From positions 3,648,001 to 3,712,000 of the forward strand of contig OY762721.1 in the NCBI GenBank assembly GCA_963666345.1: a stretch of 64,000 nt of DNA. The letters are read 5' to 3'. The stretch comes from Desulfatiglandales bacterium. Its GTDB lineage: Bacteria; Desulfobacterota; DSM-4660; Desulfatiglandales; Desulfatiglandaceae. The notes under the pieces are model-generated. The model was not told where the DNA came from. It searched no databases and saw only the letters and a list, made by a program, of their open reading frames with translations. Shown here piece after piece: positions 4,258-17,263 of the stretch (positions are counted from its first letter, which is position 1; each line of letters opens with the position of its first letter). The translations under genes were made by a program, and so were the position numbers.

Positions 4258-5082
4258 ATGGGCTTTATTGTTGTTGATCAGGAAAAATGCAACCGCGACG
4301 GTATCTGTGTGGCCGAGTGCCCGGCTCATGTAATCCTTATGAACTCAAGGGAAGATTATCCGACTCCGGTCTCGGATTTTGAAGAATACTGTCTGAGATG
4401 CGGTCACTGTGTTGCCGTCTGCCCCACCGGAGCCGTCAGACTGGACTGGCTCAGGCCTGAAGACTGTGAAAAAATAAAAGGGGACCTGACAATAACACCG
4501 GAACAGGCCGGGCAGTTTCTGCGCGCAAGGCGTTCCATTAGGACCTTCAAGAAAAAGACTGTTGCGCGATCAATCCTGCGAAATCTCCTGGAGGTGGCCT
4601 GTTCAGCCCCTTCGGCCAAAAACAGTCAACCCTGGCATTGGGTTGTGGTTCAGGACCCATCAAAAGTTCAAGGGTTTGCGAATATTGCCATTGAATGGAT
4701 GCGAACGGTTGCCCGGGACAACCCGGAAGAGGCTGTGAACAGAGGGTTTACCCGTGCTGTGGCATACTGGGATGAAGGATATGACAGTATCTGCCGGGGT
4801 GCGCCTCATATCATAGTGGTTCATGGTGAAAGGGACTGGCTGTTCGGCCCTGAAGACAGCGCCCTGGCCTTGAGCCTGCTTGATTTGTACGCAGCAGGCA
4901 TCGGGCTTGGGGCCTGCTGGGGAGGGTATTTTTACAAGGCAGTAAACGCCTGTCCCCCATTGTTTGAGGCACTGGGTCTGCCGGATGACCACCAGGCGTA
5001 CGGGGCTATGATGGTGGGTTACCCGAAATTCAAATACCACCGTATTCCCAATCGCAACCGGCTTGAGGTCAGGTGGAAGTAA
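4258..5082 (+). CDS. Nitroreductase family protein with N-terminal 4Fe-4S ferredoxin domain
   Basis: CNRDGICVAECP and CLRCGHCVAVCP motifs, then RRSIRTF and APSAKNSQPW nitroreductase motifs. Confidence 0.92.
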   Translation: MGFIVVDQEKCNRDGICVAECPAHVILMNSREDYPTPVSDFEEYCLRCGHCVAVCPTGAVRLDWLRPEDCEKIKGDLTITPEQAGQFLRARRSIRTFKKKTVARSILRNLLEVACSAPSAKNSQPWHWVVVQDPSKVQGFANIAIEWMRTVARDNPEEAVNRGFTRAVAYWDEGYDSICRGAPHIIVVHGERDWLFGPEDSALALSLLDLYAAGIGLGACWGGYFYKAVNACPPLFEALGLPDDHQAYGAMMVGYPKFKYHRIPNRNRLEVRWK

Positions 5083-7858: not shown

Positions 7859-8093
7859 GGCCCGTTTCATGAAGCGCCAGGGCATGGACTGAGTACCTTC
7901 CAGGGGTGAATCACTACCCGTTCAGCGGAGCCGGGTTTCTTTATCCCCTGAAGATGTCATTTAAACTTCCGGAAAATCCTGCAGGTCATTTTCGAAAACT
8001 TGAAAAAAATCTTTCAGTAATTATAAGTAATAGGGTGCTATTTTATAGCTGCTCCAACCTGTTTGATAAAATGATTGGCTGAATGAGCCGGGT

Positions 8094-8138
8094 AAGTGGT
8101 CAAAGTGACTAAAGTGACTAGAGTGACTAGAGTGACTA
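8094..8138. repeat. Tandem 9-mer (A/G)AGTGACTA x4 plus one degenerate unit
   Basis: Read directly: AAGTGGTCA AAGTGACTA AAGTGACTA GAGTGACTA GAGTGACTA. Confidence 0.9.
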
Positions 8139-8191
8139 AAATTGTGGGGTTATTTGCCTTTAGCTATTATATCTAATCCTGGGAGTCTTTA

Positions 8192-9133
8192 ATGAAGAAA
8201 TTTATGCTACCTATACTCATATGTCCATCCTGCCTGCCTGATGAAATCGAACCGGAATGCAGGGTCATTGAAGAGGAAGGTGATGATATAATTGAGGGGT
8301 CGCTTTACTGCCCCGGATGTAAAAGGTCTTACGAGATCAAGGAGGGAGTGGCGTTTCTGGATACTGCAAACCGTGAAGGAGAGACGGTTTCAGGTTCAAA
8401 ATATGAAGATGAATCAGTCCTTTCATCCTATCTCTGGAGTCACTATTGCGATATCCTGAAAGACCCTGATGAGTCCGAGGCCTACAGGCAGTGGTCGGAA
8501 CTTGTCAGGAGCGGTTCAGGAGTATCCCTTGACGCGGGATGCGCCGTGGGGCGCTTTACCTTTGAAATGGCCCTTAAAAGTGAATTTTCAATAGGCATTG
8601 ACAACTCGATGAGTTTTATCAGGGCATCACGGGAACTCATGAAAAAAAGACGCATGACCCTGAGGCTCAAGCAGGAGGGAATGATTGAAAAATATGAGGA
8701 GTTAGCCCTTCCGGAGACATGGAACTTTGATAATGTTGAATTCATTGTGGGAGATGCTCAGGCCCTTCCAATAAGGTCTGAAAGCATATCCAGTTTCGGT
8801 TGCCTCAACCTGGTTGACAAACTCCCTGCCCCTGTCAGGCATATCGAGGAGATGAACCGTATGACAAAGAAAAGGCAGGCCCAGTTTCTCCTGTCCGATC
8901 CTTTTTCCTGGTCAACGGATGTGGCGGAACAAAAGGCGTGGCTGGGGGGTACTGATAAGGGCCCTTATGCGGGCAGGGGGATGGAAAACATCGTGAAGCT
9001 CCTGAAGGGCGAAAAGGGCGACCTTTCACCTGTATGGGACATTGAAGAGCAGGGGCATGTCTGGTGGAAGATCAGGACCCATTCAAACCACTTCGAACTT
9101 ATCAGAAGCTGTTTTATAAAAGCCGCAAGATAA
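8192..9133 (+). CDS. SAM-dependent methyltransferase with N-terminal Trm112-like zinc ribbon; resembles the OvoA C-terminal (mercaptohistidine N-methyltransferase) domain
   Basis: CPSC...CPGC...YEIKEGV N-terminus, then YEDESVLSSYLWSHY, LDAGCAVGRFTFEMA, GIDNSMSFI, VEFIVGDA, NLVDKL and DPFSW..WLGG. Confidence 0.75.
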   Translation: MKKFMLPILICPSCLPDEIEPECRVIEEEGDDIIEGSLYCPGCKRSYEIKEGVAFLDTANREGETVSGSKYEDESVLSSYLWSHYCDILKDPDESEAYRQWSELVRSGSGVSLDAGCAVGRFTFEMALKSEFSIGIDNSMSFIRASRELMKKRRMTLRLKQEGMIEKYEELALPETWNFDNVEFIVGDAQALPIRSESISSFGCLNLVDKLPAPVRHIEEMNRMTKKRQAQFLLSDPFSWSTDVAEQKAWLGGTDKGPYAGRGMENIVKLLKGEKGDLSPVWDIEEQGHVWWKIRTHSNHFELIRSCFIKAAR

Positions 9134-9163
9134 TAACATTCCATTTAAAGACAAGAGGTTCCC

Positions 9164-11224
9164 ATGAAAACAAATACGGTCTGCCGGTTATGTTCATCCT
9201 GCTGTCCTGTGGAGGTGGAGATAGAGACCGAAAGGCTTATCGCCGGTGCCAGGCGCTCCCCCCTGCAGACTGCTGAACGTACCTTCTGCCCCAAGCTCAA
9301 GGCGGCACCAGATATAGTATATTCACCGGAAAGGCTCAAAAAGCCGCTGGTCAGGAAAAAGGGAAAAAGGGGAAATCCCTTTGTAGAATCCTCCTGGGAA
9401 GACGCCCTCGGTCTGGTGGCGGAAAAATTCTTGTCATTCAGGCAGAGATATGGAGCGGAATCGGTCTGCTGGCTGAGGGGCATGGCCTCCGACTGGGGGG
9501 CGCCCTGGGACTATGCAAACAGGCTTATGAGCGTTTTCGGATCACCCAACACCATAGGAAACGGCTCCGTATGTCATGTGGGAAGGGAAATGGCGCATAC
9601 CTACACATACGGGGCAATGACATTTCCCGATATAAAAAATTCGAGGTGTATTGTCGTCTGGGGGAAAAACGACAGCGATACCAACCCACAGGCCTTTGAG
9701 GCGATCCTTTATGCGAGAGGTAAGGGCGCAAAGCTGATCGTAATCGATCCGGTCAGGACAAAGCTTGCCGCAATGGCCGATATCTGGCTTCAGGTAAAGC
9801 CGGGTCACGACGGCCTGCTTGCAATGGCCGTTATAAACGAGATCATATCCTGCGGACTCTATGACCATGACATGGTCGAAAATTACTCAACCGGTTTTGA
9901 ACGGCTTAAGGAGGCGGCAGCCCGCTACAGGGCCGGGGATATTGCCCGGGCAATCTGGCTTGAACCTGAAAGGATCAAAGATGCGGCACGAATCTATGCG
10001 GAAACAAAGCCCGCCTGCATAATAGAGGGCAACGGGCTCGACATGCAGATAAACGCCTTTCAGCACACCAGGGCGGTATGTATCCTGAGGGCGCTTACCG
10101 GGAATCTGGATCAAAAAGGGGGGGACCTTATCCCCCAGCCCATACCGGTAAGAAATCTGCAGCTTAGGGAGCGTTTGCCTGAAGGGGTAAAACCTGTCAC
10201 CCATGAGTATCCGCTCTTTAATGAATTTCATGAGACCTGGGGGAAAAACGCCCAGTCCTGCATCATTGACGCTATCCTGGCTGAAAGGCCTTATCCTCTC
10301 AAGATGCTCATGGTTCAGTCGGCAAATCCGGTTGTGACCATGGCGGACTCAAACAGGGTGCTAAAGGCGCTTGAAAAACTGGAATTCCTGGCGGTAGTCG
10401 ATCTTTTCATGACACGCACCGCCCGGATGGCTGATGTCGTGCTTCCCGCGACCAGCTCGTTTGAAAAGACGCAGCTCAACCGGGCCTACATACGAAACAA
10501 CATGGTAATGATTCAAAATCAGGTCATAGACTGGATAGGGGAGAGCCGGCCCGACTGGAAGATCACATTCGAGCTTGCAAGACGGCTCGGCATGGAAAAG
10601 GAATTTCCATGGCAGACCGCGGAAGAGGCCATAGACTATCAGCTTGAGCCTGCAGGTATCACGGTCGAGATGCTGAGGGAAAAACCTGAGGGAATCAGGG
10701 TGGGCGAGACGATCTTTGAAAAATACAAGACGATCGGCGTGGCAACCCCTTCAGGCAGGGTGGAGCTTTATTCGAAGAGGCTTGAAGAACATGGACACTC
10801 CGGTGTGCCTGTCTTTGAGGGGAGGGCTAGAAATCCGATAAGCTTCAGTGACAGAAAAGATGAGTTTCCGCTGATAGGTATGAGCGGGGCACGTCAGAAC
10901 AGGTTTACCCATTCCCAGTTCAGAAACATCCCCTCTCTTTCAAGGAAAGGGGAGGAGTGCCATGTGGAAATCAATGAGAAAGACGCTGAAATTTACGGTA
11001 TCTCAGTCGGAGGCAGGGTAAAGGTTGAGACCCCGCGCGGGCATGTCATAATGAAGGCCAAGATCTCGGAGCTGGTCCATCCCGGATCTATAAGAATCGC
11101 CTGGGGGTGGGGAGATGTAAGCCCCGACTACAATCTCAACAACCTTACCGACGATAACATAAGAGACGAGGTCATCTGCACTCCATCGAGCAGAAACTTC
11201 ATGTGCAGGGTAAGCAGATGTTAG
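9164..11224 (+). CDS. Molybdopterin (Mo/W-bisPGD) oxidoreductase, cytoplasmic catalytic subunit
   Basis: CRLCSSCC..C Fe-S motif, PERLKKPL, SVCH (likely Cys metal ligand), ADVVLPA, TPSGRVEL and a C-terminal dinucleotide-binding domain. No Tat signal. Confidence 0.93.
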   Translation: MKTNTVCRLCSSCCPVEVEIETERLIAGARRSPLQTAERTFCPKLKAAPDIVYSPERLKKPLVRKKGKRGNPFVESSWEDALGLVAEKFLSFRQRYGAESVCWLRGMASDWGAPWDYANRLMSVFGSPNTIGNGSVCHVGREMAHTYTYGAMTFPDIKNSRCIVVWGKNDSDTNPQAFEAILYARGKGAKLIVIDPVRTKLAAMADIWLQVKPGHDGLLAMAVINEIISCGLYDHDMVENYSTGFERLKEAAARYRAGDIARAIWLEPERIKDAARIYAETKPACIIEGNGLDMQINAFQHTRAVCILRALTGNLDQKGGDLIPQPIPVRNLQLRERLPEGVKPVTHEYPLFNEFHETWGKNAQSCIIDAILAERPYPLKMLMVQSANPVVTMADSNRVLKALEKLEFLAVVDLFMTRTARMADVVLPATSSFEKTQLNRAYIRNNMVMIQNQVIDWIGESRPDWKITFELARRLGMEKEFPWQTAEEAIDYQLEPAGITVEMLREKPEGIRVGETIFEKYKTIGVATPSGRVELYSKRLEEHGHSGVPVFEGRARNPISFSDRKDEFPLIGMSGARQNRFTHSQFRNIPSLSRKGEECHVEINEKDAEIYGISVGGRVKVETPRGHVIMKAKISELVHPGSIRIAWGWGDVSPDYNLNNLTDDNIRDEVICTPSSRNFMCRVSRC

Positions 11225-11288: not shown

Positions 11289-11322
11289 AAGCCTTGCCAT
11301 TTATTTGGTGGGGCTTTTTTTT
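11289..11322 (+). terminator. Probable intrinsic terminator after the Mo-enzyme gene
   Basis: AAGCCTTGCCA-TTTATT-TGGTGGGGCTT stem (with GU pairs) followed by a T run. Confidence 0.55.
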
Positions 11323-11639
11323 GATGTGAGTAAGTAACCACAGTAATTTCTTGAAATCAATAAATATGTTCATTGGGAATTGTCTCTAACTAGGAATCAT
11401 TTCACCATTATCCCTTGCGCCCATAAATTTATGAATTTGCCCTTATAAGAGTGAAAAAGATAGATATAAAAATTTACCATCTCTCCTTCCTATTTTTATC
11501 ATCAGTCTTGGGCAATGGGCGCCAAATATCATATGCCTAAATACATGAATAGAACAGTGATACTAGTAACATTAACATAACACTTCATAAATAGAGTAAT
11601 AACATATTTTATAATAATATAAGTCGGCTAAAAAAATAC

Positions 11640-11737: not shown

Positions 11738-12760
11738 ATGTCGAAAAAATTAACAATAAGAGATATTGCAAAACTCGCAAAAGTTTCTCATATGACCGTT
11801 TCTAGGGTTTTAAATAATGACCCAAAGGTTAAAGAGGAAACCAAAAATAGGGTTGTAGAAGTTATCCACAAATATAAATACCGTCCCGACCCTACCGCTC
11901 GAATGTTTGCAAACAGAAAGTCCTTTCTTCTCGGCATAATAGTAGCCGACATACGAAACCCATTCTACGCAGAACTTGCCAGAGGAATTGAGGACAGGAC
12001 ATTTGAAAACGGGTATAGCACAATATTTTGCAGCACCGATAATAAGCCTGAAAGGACAGCACGCTACGTTGAACACATGCTGGATGCTGGAGTAGAAGGA
12101 ATTGTTTTTGCTTCTGTGCGGTTAAATGAACCTGTTGTCGAAGAACTCATTAGAGATAAATTTCCTCTTGTTGTCGTAAATCGTAAACTCAGTGGAGAGT
12201 CATATAATTACGTAGTAGTTGACAATTTTAAGGGCGCTTATGAGATGACAAACTATTTGGTGGAATGCGGTTATAAGCGAATAGCAATAATATCCGGTCC
12301 TCCGATACTTTCGACAGGTTTGGATCGTTTGAAAGGATATGAAAAAGCGTTGGAAGATAACTCTGTTAAAATTTCCGATGATTACCTTTTGCAGGGATCT
12401 TTTACAAAAGAAACAGGTTATGAAGGAACGAAAAAATTATTAGAGTGTGCTGAAAGGCCTGACGTTATTTTTGCGGGAAATGACTTTATTGCCATGGGGG
12501 TTATCGATGCACTTGAGGAGGCTTGTTTGCGTATCCCGGAGGATATTGCAGTTGTAGGTTTTGACGACACTGAATTTGCTTCAAACAGAAGAATTAACCT
12601 GACAACGGTAAGCCAAAATCAATATGAAATGGGAAAATTAGGGGCAGACATCTTGGTGAATTGCATCGAGACAAAAGGTGCAGAATATTTTCATCGAATC
12701 ACTATGGAGCCAAAGTTAATTATCAGGGGTTCATCCACAATAAAACAACAAAATAACTAA
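11738..12760 (+). CDS. LacI family transcriptional regulator
   Basis: TIRDIAKLAKVSHMTVSRVLN HTH, sugar-binding fold, IPEDIAVVGFDD. Confidence 0.96.
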   Translation: MSKKLTIRDIAKLAKVSHMTVSRVLNNDPKVKEETKNRVVEVIHKYKYRPDPTARMFANRKSFLLGIIVADIRNPFYAELARGIEDRTFENGYSTIFCSTDNKPERTARYVEHMLDAGVEGIVFASVRLNEPVVEELIRDKFPLVVVNRKLSGESYNYVVVDNFKGAYEMTNYLVECGYKRIAIISGPPILSTGLDRLKGYEKALEDNSVKISDDYLLQGSFTKETGYEGTKKLLECAERPDVIFAGNDFIAMGVIDALEEACLRIPEDIAVVGFDDTEFASNRRINLTTVSQNQYEMGKLGADILVNCIETKGAEYFHRITMEPKLIIRGSSTIKQQNN

Positions 12761-12829
12761 ATATATCAAAAACATATAATTGCGCACCAATTTTACTTTA
12801 ATAAATAATTGATAACGAGGAGTAGATGA

Positions 12830-14101
12830 ATGGCCAAATATTTAAAAAATGCTGTTGTGAGAAAAGAAGAAGATACCAAATATGTTCAGGATGCAGTGAG
12901 AGAAATATTAGGTAAAGTTCGTAATGAAGGTGAATCAGCTGTTAGGTATTACTCTGAAAAATTTGATAATTGGAGCCCTAAGAGGTTCAAGATATCTGAA
13001 GAGGAAAAAAATGAAGCCAAAAAATCCCTTCCAACAAGTGAAATTGAAGATATCGACTTTTGCCAAAAGCAAGTCAAATATTTTGCGGAAGAGCAAATGA
13101 AGCGATTGGTGGATTTTGAGGTTGAATCAATTCCCGGAGTCCATCTTGGGCAAAAGATAATTCCAATAGCAGCAAGCGGGTCATATATCCCGGGTGGTCG
13201 TTATCCCATGTTGGGGTCTGCCCATATGACTATTATCACGCCAAAAGTTGCTGGTGTAAAGAGAATCGTTGCTTGTTCCCCACCTGTGAAGGGTCAAGGT
13301 ATGTGGCCAGCGACACTCTATTCAATGGTTGCAGCTGGAGCGGAAGAAATATACTGCATGGGAGGGGTTCACGCTCTTGCATCTATGGCTTATGGCATGG
13401 AAGGGCTCGAACCTGTCGATATGATAGTGGGAGCCGGAAACAAGTTTGTTGCTGAGGCCAAAAGGCAAATTTTTGGTGATGCCGGAATTGATCTGCTTGC
13501 CGGACCAACCGAAATCTTAATTATCGCAGATGATACCGCTGACCCTGTAATTGTCGCTGGAGATCTTCTAGGACAGGCAGAGCATGATCCTAATTCCAGA
13601 CAGGCCCTTATAGCTCTTTCCGAAAATATTGCTGAGGCAACCATCAAGGAGGTTGATTCTCAGTTGAAAGATTTGCCTACGCGAGATGTAGCCGGGATTG
13701 CTTGGAGAGACAACGGAGAGGTCATCGTAGTTGACAGCGCTGATGAAGCAATAGAAATATCAGATAAATGGGCGCCTGAACATCTGGAGGTTCAGACAGA
13801 GGATTGGAAGTATTATTTAGATAACCTGACTAATTATGGGTCACTATTTTTGGGGGAAGAAACAACCGTTGCCTATGGGGATAAAACGATCGGTACTAAT
13901 CATGTGCTGCCTACTATGCGATCGGCGCGCTATACCGGGGGGTTGTATGTTGGTAAGTTTGTTAAGACAGTTACATATCAGTATGCAAACAGGGAAGGTT
14001 CTGCAAAGATTGCAGATGTATGTGAAAGGGCCTGTAATTATGAAAATATGCTTGCTCATGGGATCACATGTAAAATGAGAAAGGAGAAGTATCTGGGATA
14101 A
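12830..14101 (+). CDS. Histidinol dehydrogenase homolog (HpsN/sulfopropanediol dehydrogenase-like catabolic clade)
   Basis: YIPGGRYP, GAGNKFVAEAKRQ, IDLLAGPTE, QAEHD, APEHLE and YGDKTIGTNHVLPT. Catabolic rather than his-operon context. Confidence 0.8.
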   Translation: MAKYLKNAVVRKEEDTKYVQDAVREILGKVRNEGESAVRYYSEKFDNWSPKRFKISEEEKNEAKKSLPTSEIEDIDFCQKQVKYFAEEQMKRLVDFEVESIPGVHLGQKIIPIAASGSYIPGGRYPMLGSAHMTIITPKVAGVKRIVACSPPVKGQGMWPATLYSMVAAGAEEIYCMGGVHALASMAYGMEGLEPVDMIVGAGNKFVAEAKRQIFGDAGIDLLAGPTEILIIADDTADPVIVAGDLLGQAEHDPNSRQALIALSENIAEATIKEVDSQLKDLPTRDVAGIAWRDNGEVIVVDSADEAIEISDKWAPEHLEVQTEDWKYYLDNLTNYGSLFLGEETTVAYGDKTIGTNHVLPTMRSARYTGGLYVGKFVKTVTYQYANREGSAKIADVCERACNYENMLAHGITCKMRKEKYLG

Positions 14102-14147
14102 AGCTGCTTTTAACAATAAATGCAAATTAGACAAGGAGGAATATTTC

Positions 14148-15131
14148 ATGAAACACATGGTTAATATCTTAGTGTTGGTGCTTGGAATTTCATTCGCCAT
14201 CGGTTCCTTTGGTACAGCAATGGCAGGATCGTCCTACCCGGAAAAACCGATAAAAGCAATTATTCCATTTGGTGCTGGAGGGTTTGTCGATTCGACAGCC
14301 AGAATCCTTCAGAAATCTCTCGAAAAAATTCTTCCTCAACCCGTGGTCATATTAAATGTTCCTGGTGGTGGTGCTGTTATCGGGAGTAGGCAAGGGAAGG
14401 ATGCTGATCCAAACGGCTATACATATTTGATGCAGATTGCTGCCATGATGACGGCGCAAACACTTGGTGTAGCAGATTTTGGTCCGGAAGACTTCGAGCC
14501 AGTAGCACAAACTGGAAGGGCTCCTTGTATGATATGTGTTAGATCAGATTCTCGCTTTAAAAATCTTGAGGATTTTGTTCAAGAAGTAAAAAAGAATCCA
14601 AATACTGTAAGAGAAGCAATCAACATTGGAGCAATAGTGCACTTTATCTCGCTATCTTTCTGTGACGCAGCAGGAGGACTGAAGATGAGATATGTTCAAA
14701 CTGGAGGTGGTGCGAAGAGGCTTGCTGCTATCCTAGGAGGCCACGCTGATGTTGCCATACTTGGTACAGCAGAAGCCAAAGCAACCTATGATTCTGGAGA
14801 CATTCGCATTCTTGGATATTTAGGATCAGAGCGCAATCGTTTTTATCCGAAGGTTGCAACGGCTGGAGAACAAGGATACCCAGGTAGCTTTCTAGCTATG
14901 AATCTTTGGTGGTTTGCTCCTAAGGGTACTCCAAAAGCGAAAATTGAAGTAATGGCTGATGCCCTTGAAAAGGCAATGAAAGATCCTGAAGTATTGAAAT
15001 CGCTTGAGGCTAGGACTACCGACGCAATATTTTATCGTGGTGAAGATGTCATAAAAAGCATTAAAGCTGACAAAGATGCAATAGACAGACTTGCTAAAAA
15101 ATACAATATCACCAAGCCAAAGAAAAAATAG
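14148..15131 (+). CDS. tctC: Tripartite tricarboxylate transporter substrate-binding protein
   Basis: Signal peptide, then YPEKPIKAIIPFGAGG..D..AR, NVPGGG..IG and GGHAD. Confidence 0.92.
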   Translation: MKHMVNILVLVLGISFAIGSFGTAMAGSSYPEKPIKAIIPFGAGGFVDSTARILQKSLEKILPQPVVILNVPGGGAVIGSRQGKDADPNGYTYLMQIAAMMTAQTLGVADFGPEDFEPVAQTGRAPCMICVRSDSRFKNLEDFVQEVKKNPNTVREAINIGAIVHFISLSFCDAAGGLKMRYVQTGGGAKRLAAILGGHADVAILGTAEAKATYDSGDIRILGYLGSERNRFYPKVATAGEQGYPGSFLAMNLWWFAPKGTPKAKIEVMADALEKAMKDPEVLKSLEARTTDAIFYRGEDVIKSIKADKDAIDRLAKKYNITKPKKK

Positions 15132-15148
15132 TTGTCTAATTCACAGAG

Positions 15149-15178
15149 CGCTTCTTGCTTTTGTTAAAGCAAGGAGCG
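15149..15178 (+). other. Intergenic stem-loop after tctC (mRNA stabiliser or partial terminator)
   Basis: CGCTTCTTGCTTT-TGTT-AAAGCAAGGAGCG. Confidence 0.6.
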
Positions 15179-15214
15179 TGACCTTAACCTATAAAATATT
15201 TAATCGGTGCCTCT

Positions 15215-15718
15215 ATGCTTAAAGAATATTCAAATATTATAAAGGATATAATTCTTTCTCTTTCTATCCTTTTTGTATGTGCCTTAGCATATATTGGCTG
15301 TATGAGCCTAAGTGAATCACCTTATGAGCCCCTCGGAGCAGGCTTTATTCCAAAAACAATCAGTATTGTTCTTGCATTACTTTCACTTATATTATTGGGG
15401 AAATCAGTCCGCAATGTATTTAAAAATCACCAAGGTAATGTCGAAGGCGTTAGTCAATCAGAGCCTTTGCCGGCGGTTTTTAAAAGGCGACCAGGACTTG
15501 CTGTTTTAGGCGTTATATTAACGATATTATATATCAATGTTCTTTACTTTAGAATAATGGGATTCAGAATATCAACCGTTCTATTTGGTGTTTTTCTAGG
15601 GACGCTGTTGTCAAGGTTCAATTATAAGAATAGTTTGATCTCTATTATAATAGCGGTGGTTATGGGGCTTGGCTTGCATTATATATTCACAAACGTATTC
15701 ATAATCGATCTTCCTTAG
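15215..15718 (+). CDS. tctB: Tripartite tricarboxylate transporter small membrane subunit
   Basis: 167 aa with about 4-5 TM segments, GAGFIP, C-terminal F..VF.IDLP; located between tctC and tctA. Confidence 0.88.
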   Translation: MLKEYSNIIKDIILSLSILFVCALAYIGCMSLSESPYEPLGAGFIPKTISIVLALLSLILLGKSVRNVFKNHQGNVEGVSQSEPLPAVFKRRPGLAVLGVILTILYINVLYFRIMGFRISTVLFGVFLGTLLSRFNYKNSLISIIIAVVMGLGLHYIFTNVFIIDLP

Positions 15719-15787
15719 GTACTTTCAAAATACAAACAAAAGCACTGGAAATATCTTAAGCAGTTAATATGAGGGGGTTGTCTATAA

Positions 15788-17263
15788 ATGCTTTTATCAT
15801 CGTTACTCAGTCTATTTGCTCCTGTTCCATTTTTTTACCTGGTTATTGGTGTCGTCTTAGGTTGCACGGTAGGCGCTATTCCTGGTCTTACAGGATCAAT
15901 GCTGATAGTTCTTACTTTGCCGATGACTTTTTACATGGACAGCACGCTTGCAATGATTCTACTGGTTGCGATGTATGTTGGAGCCATTAGTGGAGGACTA
16001 ATCACTGCAACATTACTTCGCATGCCTGGAACGCCTTCTTCAATAATGACCACTTTTGACGGTTATCCAATGGCCAAAAATGGAATGGCAGGAAGGGCTA
16101 TAGGGATAGGAATAACCGCATCTTTTGTGGGCGGATTAGTGTCATGGATATTCCTTGCTGTGCTCGCTCCTGTACTGGGTAGACTTGCTGTAAGATTTGG
16201 ACCTTTTGAATATTTTTCCATGGTTTTAATGGCGCTGGTGCTTATAGCATCTGTGAGTGAAGGGTCGTTATTAAAAGGTTTCATTGCTGGTCTTTTAGGC
16301 TTGCTTGTTGCTACGCCAGGAATAGATCCTGTAACTGCTATGCAAAGACTTGATTTCGGATTTCATGAGATGGCTGGAGGTTTTGACATTTTACCTGTGC
16401 TAATTGGGCTATTTGGTGTTAGCCAGATTATTTCGGATATGGTTAATATCGAACAAAGGCCTGAAAAAGTCCCATTTAGATTTAAAAGCATGTTTATGTC
16501 TTTCAAAGAATTGAAGAGTCAGGCAGTCAATATGATAAGATCTTCAGTTATTGGAACATGGATCGGCATTCTTCCCGGGATAGGTGCAAATATAGGCTCA
16601 ATAATCGCGTATGGGGCTGCTAAAAACACATCGAAGTCGCCGGAAAAATTTGGGACTGGTTCTGAAGAAGGCATCGTAGCATCTGAATCTGCCAATAATG
16701 CTACCGTTGGAGGCGCATTAATTCCGCTTATTACTCTCGGGATTCCAGGAAGTATTATTGATGCAGTTCTTCTTGGTGCCATGTTTATTCATAACGTTCA
16801 GCCAGGACCACTTTTATTCAAAACTCATCCCGAAATGGCATATGGTGTAATATCAGCCTGTCTAGTGGCTAATATAATAATGTTTATTGTAATGATTTTT
16901 GCCACTGTATTGATAGCCAAGATAATTGATGTGCCTAAAGAGTTCATTATTCCGGTTGTTATTGCTTTTTGTGTGGTAGGAGCTTTTGCTTTACATAACA
17001 GAATGTTTGATGTTTGGGTCATGTTCGGCTTTGGACTTGTGGGCTATTTATTGGAAAGGGCATCAGTTCCGCTTGCTCCTTTTATTATTGGTTTAATACT
17101 ATGTCCGCTTGCAGAATTACCGTTACGTCAGGGTTTGATGGCGTCTGCCGGTGATTATTCTCCTTTCATAACTAGACCGGTGTCTCTATTTTTCCTGATA
17201 GTAGCAGTGGGAACTTTTATCTTTAGTTTACGAAGAGAGCTTAAAGGGCAAAAAAACAACTAA
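15788..17263 (+). CDS. tctA: Tripartite tricarboxylate transporter large membrane subunit
   Basis: GAIPGL, PGTPSS..TTFDGYPMA, ESANNA..GALIPLITLGIPG. Confidence 0.95.
   Translation: MLLSSLLSLFAPVPFFYLVIGVVLGCTVGAIPGLTGSMLIVLTLPMTFYMDSTLAMILLVAMYVGAISGGLITATLLRMPGTPSSIMTTFDGYPMAKNGMAGRAIGIGITASFVGGLVSWIFLAVLAPVLGRLAVRFGPFEYFSMVLMALVLIASVSEGSLLKGFIAGLLGLLVATPGIDPVTAMQRLDFGFHEMAGGFDILPVLIGLFGVSQIISDMVNIEQRPEKVPFRFKSMFMSFKELKSQAVNMIRSSVIGTWIGILPGIGANIGSIIAYGAAKNTSKSPEKFGTGSEEGIVASESANNATVGGALIPLITLGIPGSIIDAVLLGAMFIHNVQPGPLLFKTHPEMAYGVISACLVANIIMFIVMIFATVLIAKIIDVPKEFIIPVVIAFCVVGAFALHNRMFDVWVMFGFGLVGYLLERASVPLAPFIIGLILCPLAELPLRQGLMASAGDYSPFITRPVSLFFLIVAVGTFIFSLRRELKGQKNN

Follow-up and report, generated by a model that had tools for sequence, protein, structure and literature searches.

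A two-gene unit encoding a methyltransferase and a molybdenum- or tungsten-dependent (Mo/W) enzyme lies within a 64,000-nucleotide (nt) stretch of the genome of a Desulfatiglandales bacterium (GenBank assembly GCA_963666345.1, contig OY762721.1, positions 3,648,001 to 3,712,000; here referred to as the window, with positions counted from its first letter). The methyltransferase open reading frame (ORF) occupies positions 8192-9133 on the plus strand (313 amino acids [aa]), and that of the Mo/W enzyme, which we term type A, occupies 9164-11224 on the same strand (686 aa). The unit is real, conserved across many sulfate-reducing bacteria, and undescribed. In our judgment, there is about an even chance that the pair makes, without oxygen, a ring-N-methylated, ovothiol-type thiohistidine (either ovothiol A itself or one of its regioisomers, with a seleno form also possible), a reading that draws on sequence comparisons and a structure model. 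Gene pairings across genomes provide strong, sequence-derived evidence that the methyltransferase family acts on a sulfurated imidazole made without oxygen, because EgtD pairs with the fused metallopterin-dependent ergothioneine synthase (MES) and the OvoM-like methyltransferase pairs with a stand-alone sister of MES (type B). The pair in the window needs one further step, the replacement of type B by type A, which we infer from their same position after the same methyltransferase family, their mutual exclusivity, and their same cofactor architecture.

The described routes to ovothiol and ovoselenol require oxygen because they depend on an iron sulfoxide or selenoxide synthase. In the accessible portion of a 2025 paper from the laboratory behind MES (PMC12631010), OvoA, OvoB, and OvoC are the only enzymes given for ovothiol, and the accessible text of the ovoselenol preprint names EanB and MES as the sole anaerobic enzymes, both for ergothioneine. 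Reviews from 2023 (PMC10903977) and 2026 (PMC13603875) agree with this in their accessible parts. No oxygen-free route to ovothiol was found in the literature searched, which did not cover most subscription journals or the paper behind Protein Data Bank (PDB) entries 9bxh-9bxn. If our reading is correct, the pair would supply the missing anaerobic counterpart for the ovothiol class and would extend metallopterin-dependent C-S bond formation past the single enzyme known. It would also make testable the role of thiohistidine in anoxic, sulfidic cells and the question of whether thiohistidines predate oxygen.

The methyltransferase family and its conserved pairing

A first-pass annotation of the window had likened the methyltransferase to OvoA's C-terminal domain. 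The likeness is borne out by the top NCBIfam model, TIGR04345 (ovoA_Cterm, a 4-mercaptohistidine N-methyltransferase domain; E = 1.6e-22, model positions 1-208 of 242), although the match scores 80.2 bits and thus falls under the curated cut-off of 170. The second methyltransferase model appears at E = 0.008, about 20 orders of magnitude weaker, and TIGR04345 is also the best model for 20/20 aligned family members (strongest E = 7.8e-33). All the motifs that had been quoted are found in the translation (KYEDESVLSSYLWSHY, LDAGCAVGRFTFEMA, GIDNSMSFI, EG, VEFIVGDA, NLVDKLPAP, and DPFSW...WLGG); the DPFSW and WLGG halves of the last one are, however, 9 residues apart and not 2, as had been given.

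Searched against all PDB chains, the methyltransferase matched OvsM (a 5-selenohistidine N-methyltransferase; 9bxh, 62.9 bits), OvoA (8khq, 59 bits), OvoM (a 5-thiohistidine N-methyltransferase; 9bxl, 58.6 bits), and a Trm112-like chain at E < 0.01, and the first three are the only methyltransferases among these matches. OvoM, OvsM, and the OvoA C-terminal domain ("OvoC") (PDB 9bxl-9bxn, 9bxh-9bxk, and 8khq, respectively) are N-pi-methyltransferases of 5-thiohistidine and 5-selenohistidine; 9bxk and 9bxn among these entries are complexes. Fold comparison points the same way: for the AlphaFold model of the methyltransferase (predicted local distance difference test score [pLDDT], 92.1), Foldseek ranks 1 to 10 are all OvoA, OvoM, or OvsM (E = 1.5e-22 to 2.9e-20). 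OvoM and OvsM overlay the model with template modeling (TM) scores on the target of 0.79-0.87 and root-mean-square deviations of 3.0-4.3 Å. The first fold match outside this group, RlmA(I), follows at 1.2e-10, a gap of some ten orders of magnitude.

The OvoM/OvsM/OvoA-C-terminal-like domain spans residues about 71-274. Residues 1-52 comprise a Trm112p-type zinc ribbon that the first-pass annotation had missed (PF03966 matches residues 2-52 at 31.4 bits, where the cut-off is 22); its four cysteines (C11, C14, C40, and C43) are invariant across the family. Against the archaeal Trm112 equivalog model, the protein scores 36.6 bits, under the cut-off of 77, and Pfam assigns it generic class I methyltransferase domains besides Trm112p, nothing more specific. 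The family numbers 1427 proteins at E ≤ 0.001, with 441 relatives in the species collection. Across all partner types, 43 columns are invariant in the family, and the invariant motifs that it has in common with OvsM and OvoA are Y71, Y80, GCAVGR, EG, NLxD+L..P, P[YF][ST]W, and W[IL]GG. We read the methyltransferase, from its sequence and modeled fold, as a sister family of the ovothiol and ovoselenol N-methyltransferases that stands outside the curated TIGR04345 equivalog.

Like OvoM and OvsM as described in the accessible text of the ovoselenol preprint, the methyltransferase is a stand-alone protein whose gene adjoins that of a putative chalcogen-inserting enzyme. Unlike OvoM, OvsM, and OvoA, it carries the Trm112-type zinc ribbon, which the matching chains do not show, and it occurs in genomes of strict anaerobes, with no OvoA/OvsA-type iron sulfoxide synthase above cut-off in the 6 genomes searched. 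The oxygen-dependent sulfoxide synthase domain had been reported missing. The absence extends to the whole genome, where the best match to the OvoA N-terminal sulfoxide synthase model (TIGR04344) reaches 35 bits against a cut-off of 400, and 0/5 other pair-bearing genomes have a match above cut-off. EgtD (TIGR03438) likewise has no match in the window's own genome.

The association of the methyltransferase with type A recurs widely. Of 401 genomes sampled from the phylum, 38 carry the methyltransferase, and 14 of these 38 encode a type A ortholog (≥876 bits, 56-68% identity; next tier, ≤469 bits), directly downstream on the same strand in every case (14/14). Two candidates per genome were scored for type A and type B, so that a lower-ranked ortholog could be missed. 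A species-wide scan, in which figures cover the 80 best methyltransferase loci, found an intact type A gene 10-245 nt downstream in 58. In the other loci, type A was convergent (1), frameshifted (1), or fragmented (4); the flank was too short (5); a radical SAM gene lay upstream (5); or neither enzyme was found (6). Genes at fetched loci were called with a crude longest-ORF picker, and the methyltransferases of two loci (L036 and L055) were placed from search coordinates. The methyltransferase tree sorts by partner and is congruent with the type A tree; since the two mirror each other, the methyltransferase and type A travel together. Co-occurrence, which the first-pass annotation had proposed as a check, thus confirms that the pair is conserved, and the pairing of methyltransferase and Mo enzyme is far beyond chance.

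Where the methyltransferase gene stands alone, a partner is encoded at a distance: 5/5 such genomes carry an unlinked one, either type A (67% identity, 1 genome) or type B (72-74% identity, 4 genomes, including delta proteobacterium NaphS2). Named strains with the genes are delta proteobacterium NaphS2 and Desulfuromonas sp. CSMB_57, the latter with type A adjacent to the methyltransferase.

The Mo/W partner and its relation to MES

Type A contains Molybdopterin (PF00384) and Molydop_binding (PF01568) domains and a weak Fe4S4 match in Pfam, and no NCBIfam model comes near its cut-off. Its N-terminus opens straight at the Fe-S motif MKTNTVCRLCSSCC, which leaves no twin-arginine leader, and contains a four-cysteine [4Fe-4S] motif (C7, C10, C14, and C42). 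The predicted metal ligand is Cys137, within the motif G-N-G-S-V-C. All five cysteines and many other positions are invariant in the 14 type A orthologs. From these features, type A is predicted to be a cytoplasmic bis-pyranopterin (Mo or W) enzyme. The first-pass annotation had also described the partner as a cytoplasmic enzyme with a bis-pyranopterin guanine dinucleotide cofactor (bisPGD), no twin-arginine translocation (Tat) signal, and no ferredoxin or membrane-anchor neighbors; the start at the Fe-S motif and the flanking genes, which encode phosphomannose isomerase and a LacI regulator, agree with this description.

The best solved relatives of type A are acetylene hydratase (2e7z; 283.7 bits, E = 2.8e-83), then 2vpw (204.6 bits), then formate dehydrogenases. 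Acetylene hydratase resembles type A in being cytoplasmic and monomeric, with an Fe-S cluster and a Cys ligand. Type A differs from it in Ser11, the residue after the second Fe-S cysteine, which is invariant in 14/14 orthologs, and in having no acetylene-related context; Ser11 sits at the position of the catalytic Asp13 of acetylene hydratase. The PsrA/PhsA enzymes (2vpw; NF012032) are likewise Mo enzymes with a Cys ligand, they handle sulfur, and type A scores 288 bits on the PhsA model; unlike them, type A is below the cut-off (694), has no Tat leader, and has no gene for a PsrB-type ferredoxin or membrane anchor beside it. Its scores on the respiratory Psr, Phs, and dimethyl sulfoxide (DMSO) reductase-type models are far under every cut-off. 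When 1.84 billion representative sequences were searched with type A, one cluster appeared at 51% identity, followed by uncharacterized enzymes of ~690 aa at ≤39%. MES was sought among the 150 nearest of these representatives, and the two long matches (P0221 and P0261) proved to be ferredoxin-reductase fusions, with no desulfurase fusion. The possibility that type A is a cryptic MES was dropped, as the positions that type A, type B, and MES have specifically in common number just 3.

MES sequences were reached via their partner EgtD, which is present in 36 of the 401 genomes. Of 20 EgtD loci fetched, 15 have a gene of 1125-1169 aa for a fused Mo enzyme and desulfurase beside EgtD, and we take these as MES because their architecture fits that published. 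The accessible part of the MES paper describes the Mo module and its cysteines, as well as the desulfurase fused to it, the EgtD link, and a sulfido-transfer mechanism (PMC9516567). Across the sample, fused MES (48-52% identical to type B) occurs in 25 genomes, with EgtD in 25/25; its open frames are 1125-1192 aa long in 24 of the 25 and 962 aa in the remaining one (G191).

Type B is a bisPGD enzyme of about 736 aa, ~30% identical to type A, that follows the methyltransferase in 6 others of the 38 genomes. Over its full length, it is 49.7-51.5% identical to the Mo module of MES (729-770 bits), and a 113-sequence FastTree phylogeny, with formate dehydrogenase (Fdh)-like paralogs as the root, places it as the sister of MES with a support of 100. 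Stand-alone type B (740-754 aa, 66-100% identity) was found in exactly 6 of the 401 genomes, abutting the methyltransferase in each, and EgtD is found in 0/6. At E ≤ 1e-150, neither type B nor MES was matched in the genomes that have type A. Beside the methyltransferase, no two of type A, type B, and a third, radical SAM set of partners were ever found together.

Several observations at and around the type B loci are recorded here. An HdrD-like Fer4/CCG protein is encoded beside type B in 2 loci and an MvhD/FlpD protein in 1, which hints at a redox partner, and at one locus the neighbors of type B and the methyltransferase include hisI and hisG, which hints at a histidine link; both are too few to count (coordinates of the HdrD-like, MvhD/FlpD, and hisI/hisG neighbors, L064:5217-6509, L174:5618-6778, L172:6203-6634, and L063:4820-6069). 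In addition, six loci without a known partner encode MES-like Mo enzymes that stand alone and form a third group, with 42-45% identity to type B and lengths of about 700-743 aa (G169:C54:44924-47041, G246:C138:2340-4454, G025:C296:3095-5161, G028:C86:18391-20532, G315:C29:9270-11432, and G338:C1:1442515-1444536).

Like MES, type A is a bisPGD enzyme predicted to be cytoplasmic, with an N-terminal four-cysteine Fe-S motif and a Cys metal ligand that align with the MES cysteines; acetylene hydratase is its closest solved relative, and its gene stands beside that of a methyltransferase of the thiohistidine-pathway type. The four Fe-S cysteines, the ligand Cys, and the motif G-x-G-[SA]-x-C are common to type A, MES, and type B. 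Unlike MES, whose substrate is N-alpha-trimethylhistidine, sulfurated at C2, type A has no fused pyridoxal phosphate (PLP)-dependent desulfurase, no EgtD in its genome, and different invariant pocket residues.

Proposed function and alternatives

In the scheme we propose, type A would first transfer a metal-bound sulfido group to a C-H of the histidine imidazole. The accessible part of the MES paper proposes such chemistry for MES (PMC9516567); for type A, the sulfur-inserting role is inferred. A persulfide donor might load the sulfido group, or it might come from the sulfide and polysulfide that are plentiful in sulfate reducers; that sulfide, polysulfide, or a housekeeping desulfurase would serve as the sulfur source in sulfidogenic cells is speculation. 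The zinc-ribbon methyltransferase would then use S-adenosylmethionine to methylate a ring nitrogen of the thiohistidine. Sulfuration is placed before methylation because OvsM rejects plain histidine, which it does not methylate according to the accessible text of the ovoselenol preprint. In this proposal, the substrate would be histidine, the ring position could be C5 or C2, and the chalcogen could be sulfur or selenium.

Several observations weigh against this scheme. In the same FastTree phylogeny, type A forms a separate clade (support, 100) amid uncharacterized enzymes of ~690 aa, neither in nor beside the MES clade, and it is 29-33% identical to MES (270-334 bits). Against the 3 positions specific to type A, type B, and MES stand 47 at which a conserved type A residue differs from the one that type B and MES conserve. 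Type A has an invariant set of its own (C13, D110, W111, W115, M294, N439, and W647), and the residues common to type B and MES (Y138, E111, Y294, E293, and S388) differ from those of type A. Given these 3 specific common positions versus 47 differing ones, together with its own invariant set, type A could have a different substrate, target a different ring position, or catalyze a different step. On the side of the methyltransferase, identity to OvoM and OvsM in structural alignments is 20-24%, and because of this and the sub-cut-off TIGR04345 score, its acceptor may differ from theirs. No desulfurase, rhodanese, or sulfur-carrier gene recurs by type A or type B at the loci examined. The coupling is furthermore not obligate: no partner was identified in 9/38 methyltransferase genomes (one of these loci ends 190 nt past the gene, at a contig end), and intact methyltransferase genes adjoin decayed type A genes in L105, L108, L133, and L142. 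Finally, related genomes are non-independent, so the counts overstate the number of independent events.

The first-pass annotation had cast the Mo enzyme in an MES-like role for ovothiol. For the methyltransferase family, this idea gains ground, since the methyltransferase adjoins the MES sister, type B, in 6 of the 401 genomes. For the window's own enzyme, the phylogenetic comparison with MES that had been suggested as a check turned out negative: type B, not type A, is next to MES, and type A lies outside the MES clade with other pocket residues. The further expectation that no desulfurase would be found within the pair was correct, with none fused to type A (Pfam detects no Aminotran_5 domain in its 686 aa) and none recurring beside either type.

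The methyltransferase has yet other partners in 9/38 genomes, a point that also weighs against the scheme. Here, as in 5/80 of the best loci, it is accompanied by a B12-radical SAM enzyme, an M19 dipeptidase, or both. The B12-binding radical SAM enzyme (686 aa) has ApyD as its best model, at 245 bits against a cut-off of 750, and a SufS/CsdA-like class-V PLP enzyme is also present in some of these loci. By analogy alone, this set could install the thiol by a third oxygen-free means, because the sulfoxide-synthase routes use an amidohydrolase or peptidase and then a PLP-dependent C-S lyase. The methyltransferase follows the B12-radical SAM gene in L033, L044, L047, L053, L057, L058, L060, L163, L165, L167, L169, and L171, often with an M19 dipeptidase.

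Taking the three partner sets together, we advance tentatively, and with less than even confidence, a broader proposal: the OvoM-like zinc-ribbon family may mark undescribed oxygen-free routes of the ovothiol type in strict anaerobes, with three or more replacements of the enzyme that forms the C-S bond (type B; type A; and the B12-radical SAM/M19 dipeptidase/class-V PLP set). If so, metallopterin-dependent imidazole sulfuration would have evolved a second time in type A, recruited independently, and ovothiol-like compounds would, as ergothioneine does, have an anaerobic biosynthesis and a function apart from oxygen stress.

Among the alternatives, the one that survives best, although we regard it as rather unlikely, is that the pair works on some other heterocycle or metabolite, which the Mo/W enzyme would sulfurate, hydroxylate, or hydrate before the methyltransferase capped either the group so introduced or a ring nitrogen, giving a product that is no thiohistidine. 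The methyltransferase score under the TIGR04345 cut-off, the place of type A outside the MES clade, and its distinct invariant pocket are all compatible with such a role, and the MES authors suggest, in the accessible part of their paper, that sulfuration of other heterocycles may be the task of many orphan Mo enzymes (PMC9516567). Another small molecule as the substrate is harder to square with the 43 invariant columns that the methyltransferase keeps whatever its partner type, with its pairing with the MES sister clade where EgtD is missing, and with the action of its sole PDB methyltransferase relatives on 5-thio- or 5-selenohistidine.

We consider it quite improbable that the product is of the ovothiol type but type A is not the C-S bond former, acting instead to reduce a disulfide or S-oxide or to supply activated sulfur, with an unlinked enzyme (for example, an EanB-like rhodanese) inserting the sulfur. 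The mutual exclusivity of type A, type B, and the radical SAM set, which fits mutual replacement, argues against such an accessory role, as does the absence of OvoA from the window's own and 5 other pair-bearing genomes and of EgtD from its own genome (no search for EanB was made). In its favor, the residues common to type B and MES are missing from type A, its bisPGD relatives include the polysulfide/thiosulfate reductase 2vpw, and some genomes have the methyltransferase without any Mo partner.

Metalloid detoxification, in which a bisPGD reductase would reduce arsenate, selenate, or tellurate and the methyltransferase would methylate the reduced metalloid, seems to us very improbable. Type A does give weak matches to arsenate, selenate, and DMSO reductase models, an ArsM-type model is matched weakly by 2/20 members of the methyltransferase family (strongest E = 1.8e-8), and TehB appears far down the fold list; all these metalloid scores are nonetheless far under cut-off and far weaker than the matches to OvoM and OvsM. 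No ars, efflux, or regulator genes recur in the neighborhoods examined, and imidazole chemistry is favored by the sisterhood of type B and MES.

A Trm112-activated RNA or protein methyltransferase whose adjacency to a Mo enzyme has no metabolic meaning, an idea that the N-terminal Trm112p-type zinc ribbon and the rank of the rRNA methyltransferase RlmA(I) as first non-Ovo fold match might invite, would surprise us most of all, given the ~ten orders of magnitude between the Ovo matches and RlmA(I), the tight repeated adjacency to two unrelated Mo clades with congruent trees, and a patchy distribution (38/401) unlike that of a housekeeping modification enzyme.

Regulatory features and flanking genes

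The methyltransferase and type A genes constitute a stand-alone two-gene unit closed by a terminator-like hairpin. The tight spacing, the 30-nt gap, and the terminator given in the first-pass annotation were all recovered. The intergenic gap (9134-9163, plus strand, 30 nt) contains a ribosome-binding site, AAGAGG, at 9153-9158, which ends 5 nt 5' of the type A ATG. The hairpin with its T-run, resembling an intrinsic terminator, is at 11289-11323 on the plus strand and begins 65 nt past the type A stop; its stem (11289-11316) has 11 pairs, 5 of them G-C.

The intergenic region upstream of the unit is 333 nt long (7859-8191, plus strand). It contains a putative sigma-70-like promoter site (8114-8142, plus strand) with only 9/12 matches to the consensus. 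Directly 5' of the methyltransferase gene, at 8102-8140, the 9-bp unit AAAGTGACT is tandemly repeated in 4.3 copies (93% matches), and the AAAGTGACT repeats overlap the -35 region of the promoter-like site. From its layout, the array may be a putative regulator-binding array.

The genes on either side are unrelated to the pair. Those upstream encode a mannose-1-phosphate guanylyltransferase and a phosphomannose isomerase; those downstream, which form a low-GC cluster (about 0.40-0.41) at 11738-17263, encode a LacI-family regulator, a paralog of histidinol dehydrogenase (HisD), and TctCBA. Another HisD gene is located at G000:C1:1373982-1375196, in the same notation as above, and the copy in the cluster shows 36% identity to it. 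The cluster's HisD-like gene does not recur beside the pair in the 37 other loci examined; for this reason, the cluster is probably an unrelated catabolic island.

Elsewhere in the window, positions 4258-5082 encode a 2x[4Fe-4S] ferredoxin domain fused to a nitroreductase, a homolog of which is also encoded close to the methyltransferase in L044 (cluster 16, confined to 2 loci). In two further genomes (loci L046 and L050 of G080 and G114), the pair directly follows, on its downstream side, a gene for an Fdh-alpha-type enzyme (which exceeds the TIGR01591 cut-off at 754 bits) that is accompanied by two ferredoxin-like genes, with a gene for a small 4Fe-4S protein immediately before the methyltransferase. 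The fragmented or frameshifted type A genes that lie by an intact methyltransferase gene in L105, L108, L133, L142, and L159 could be cases of recent partner decay or errors in the assembly of metagenome-assembled genomes.

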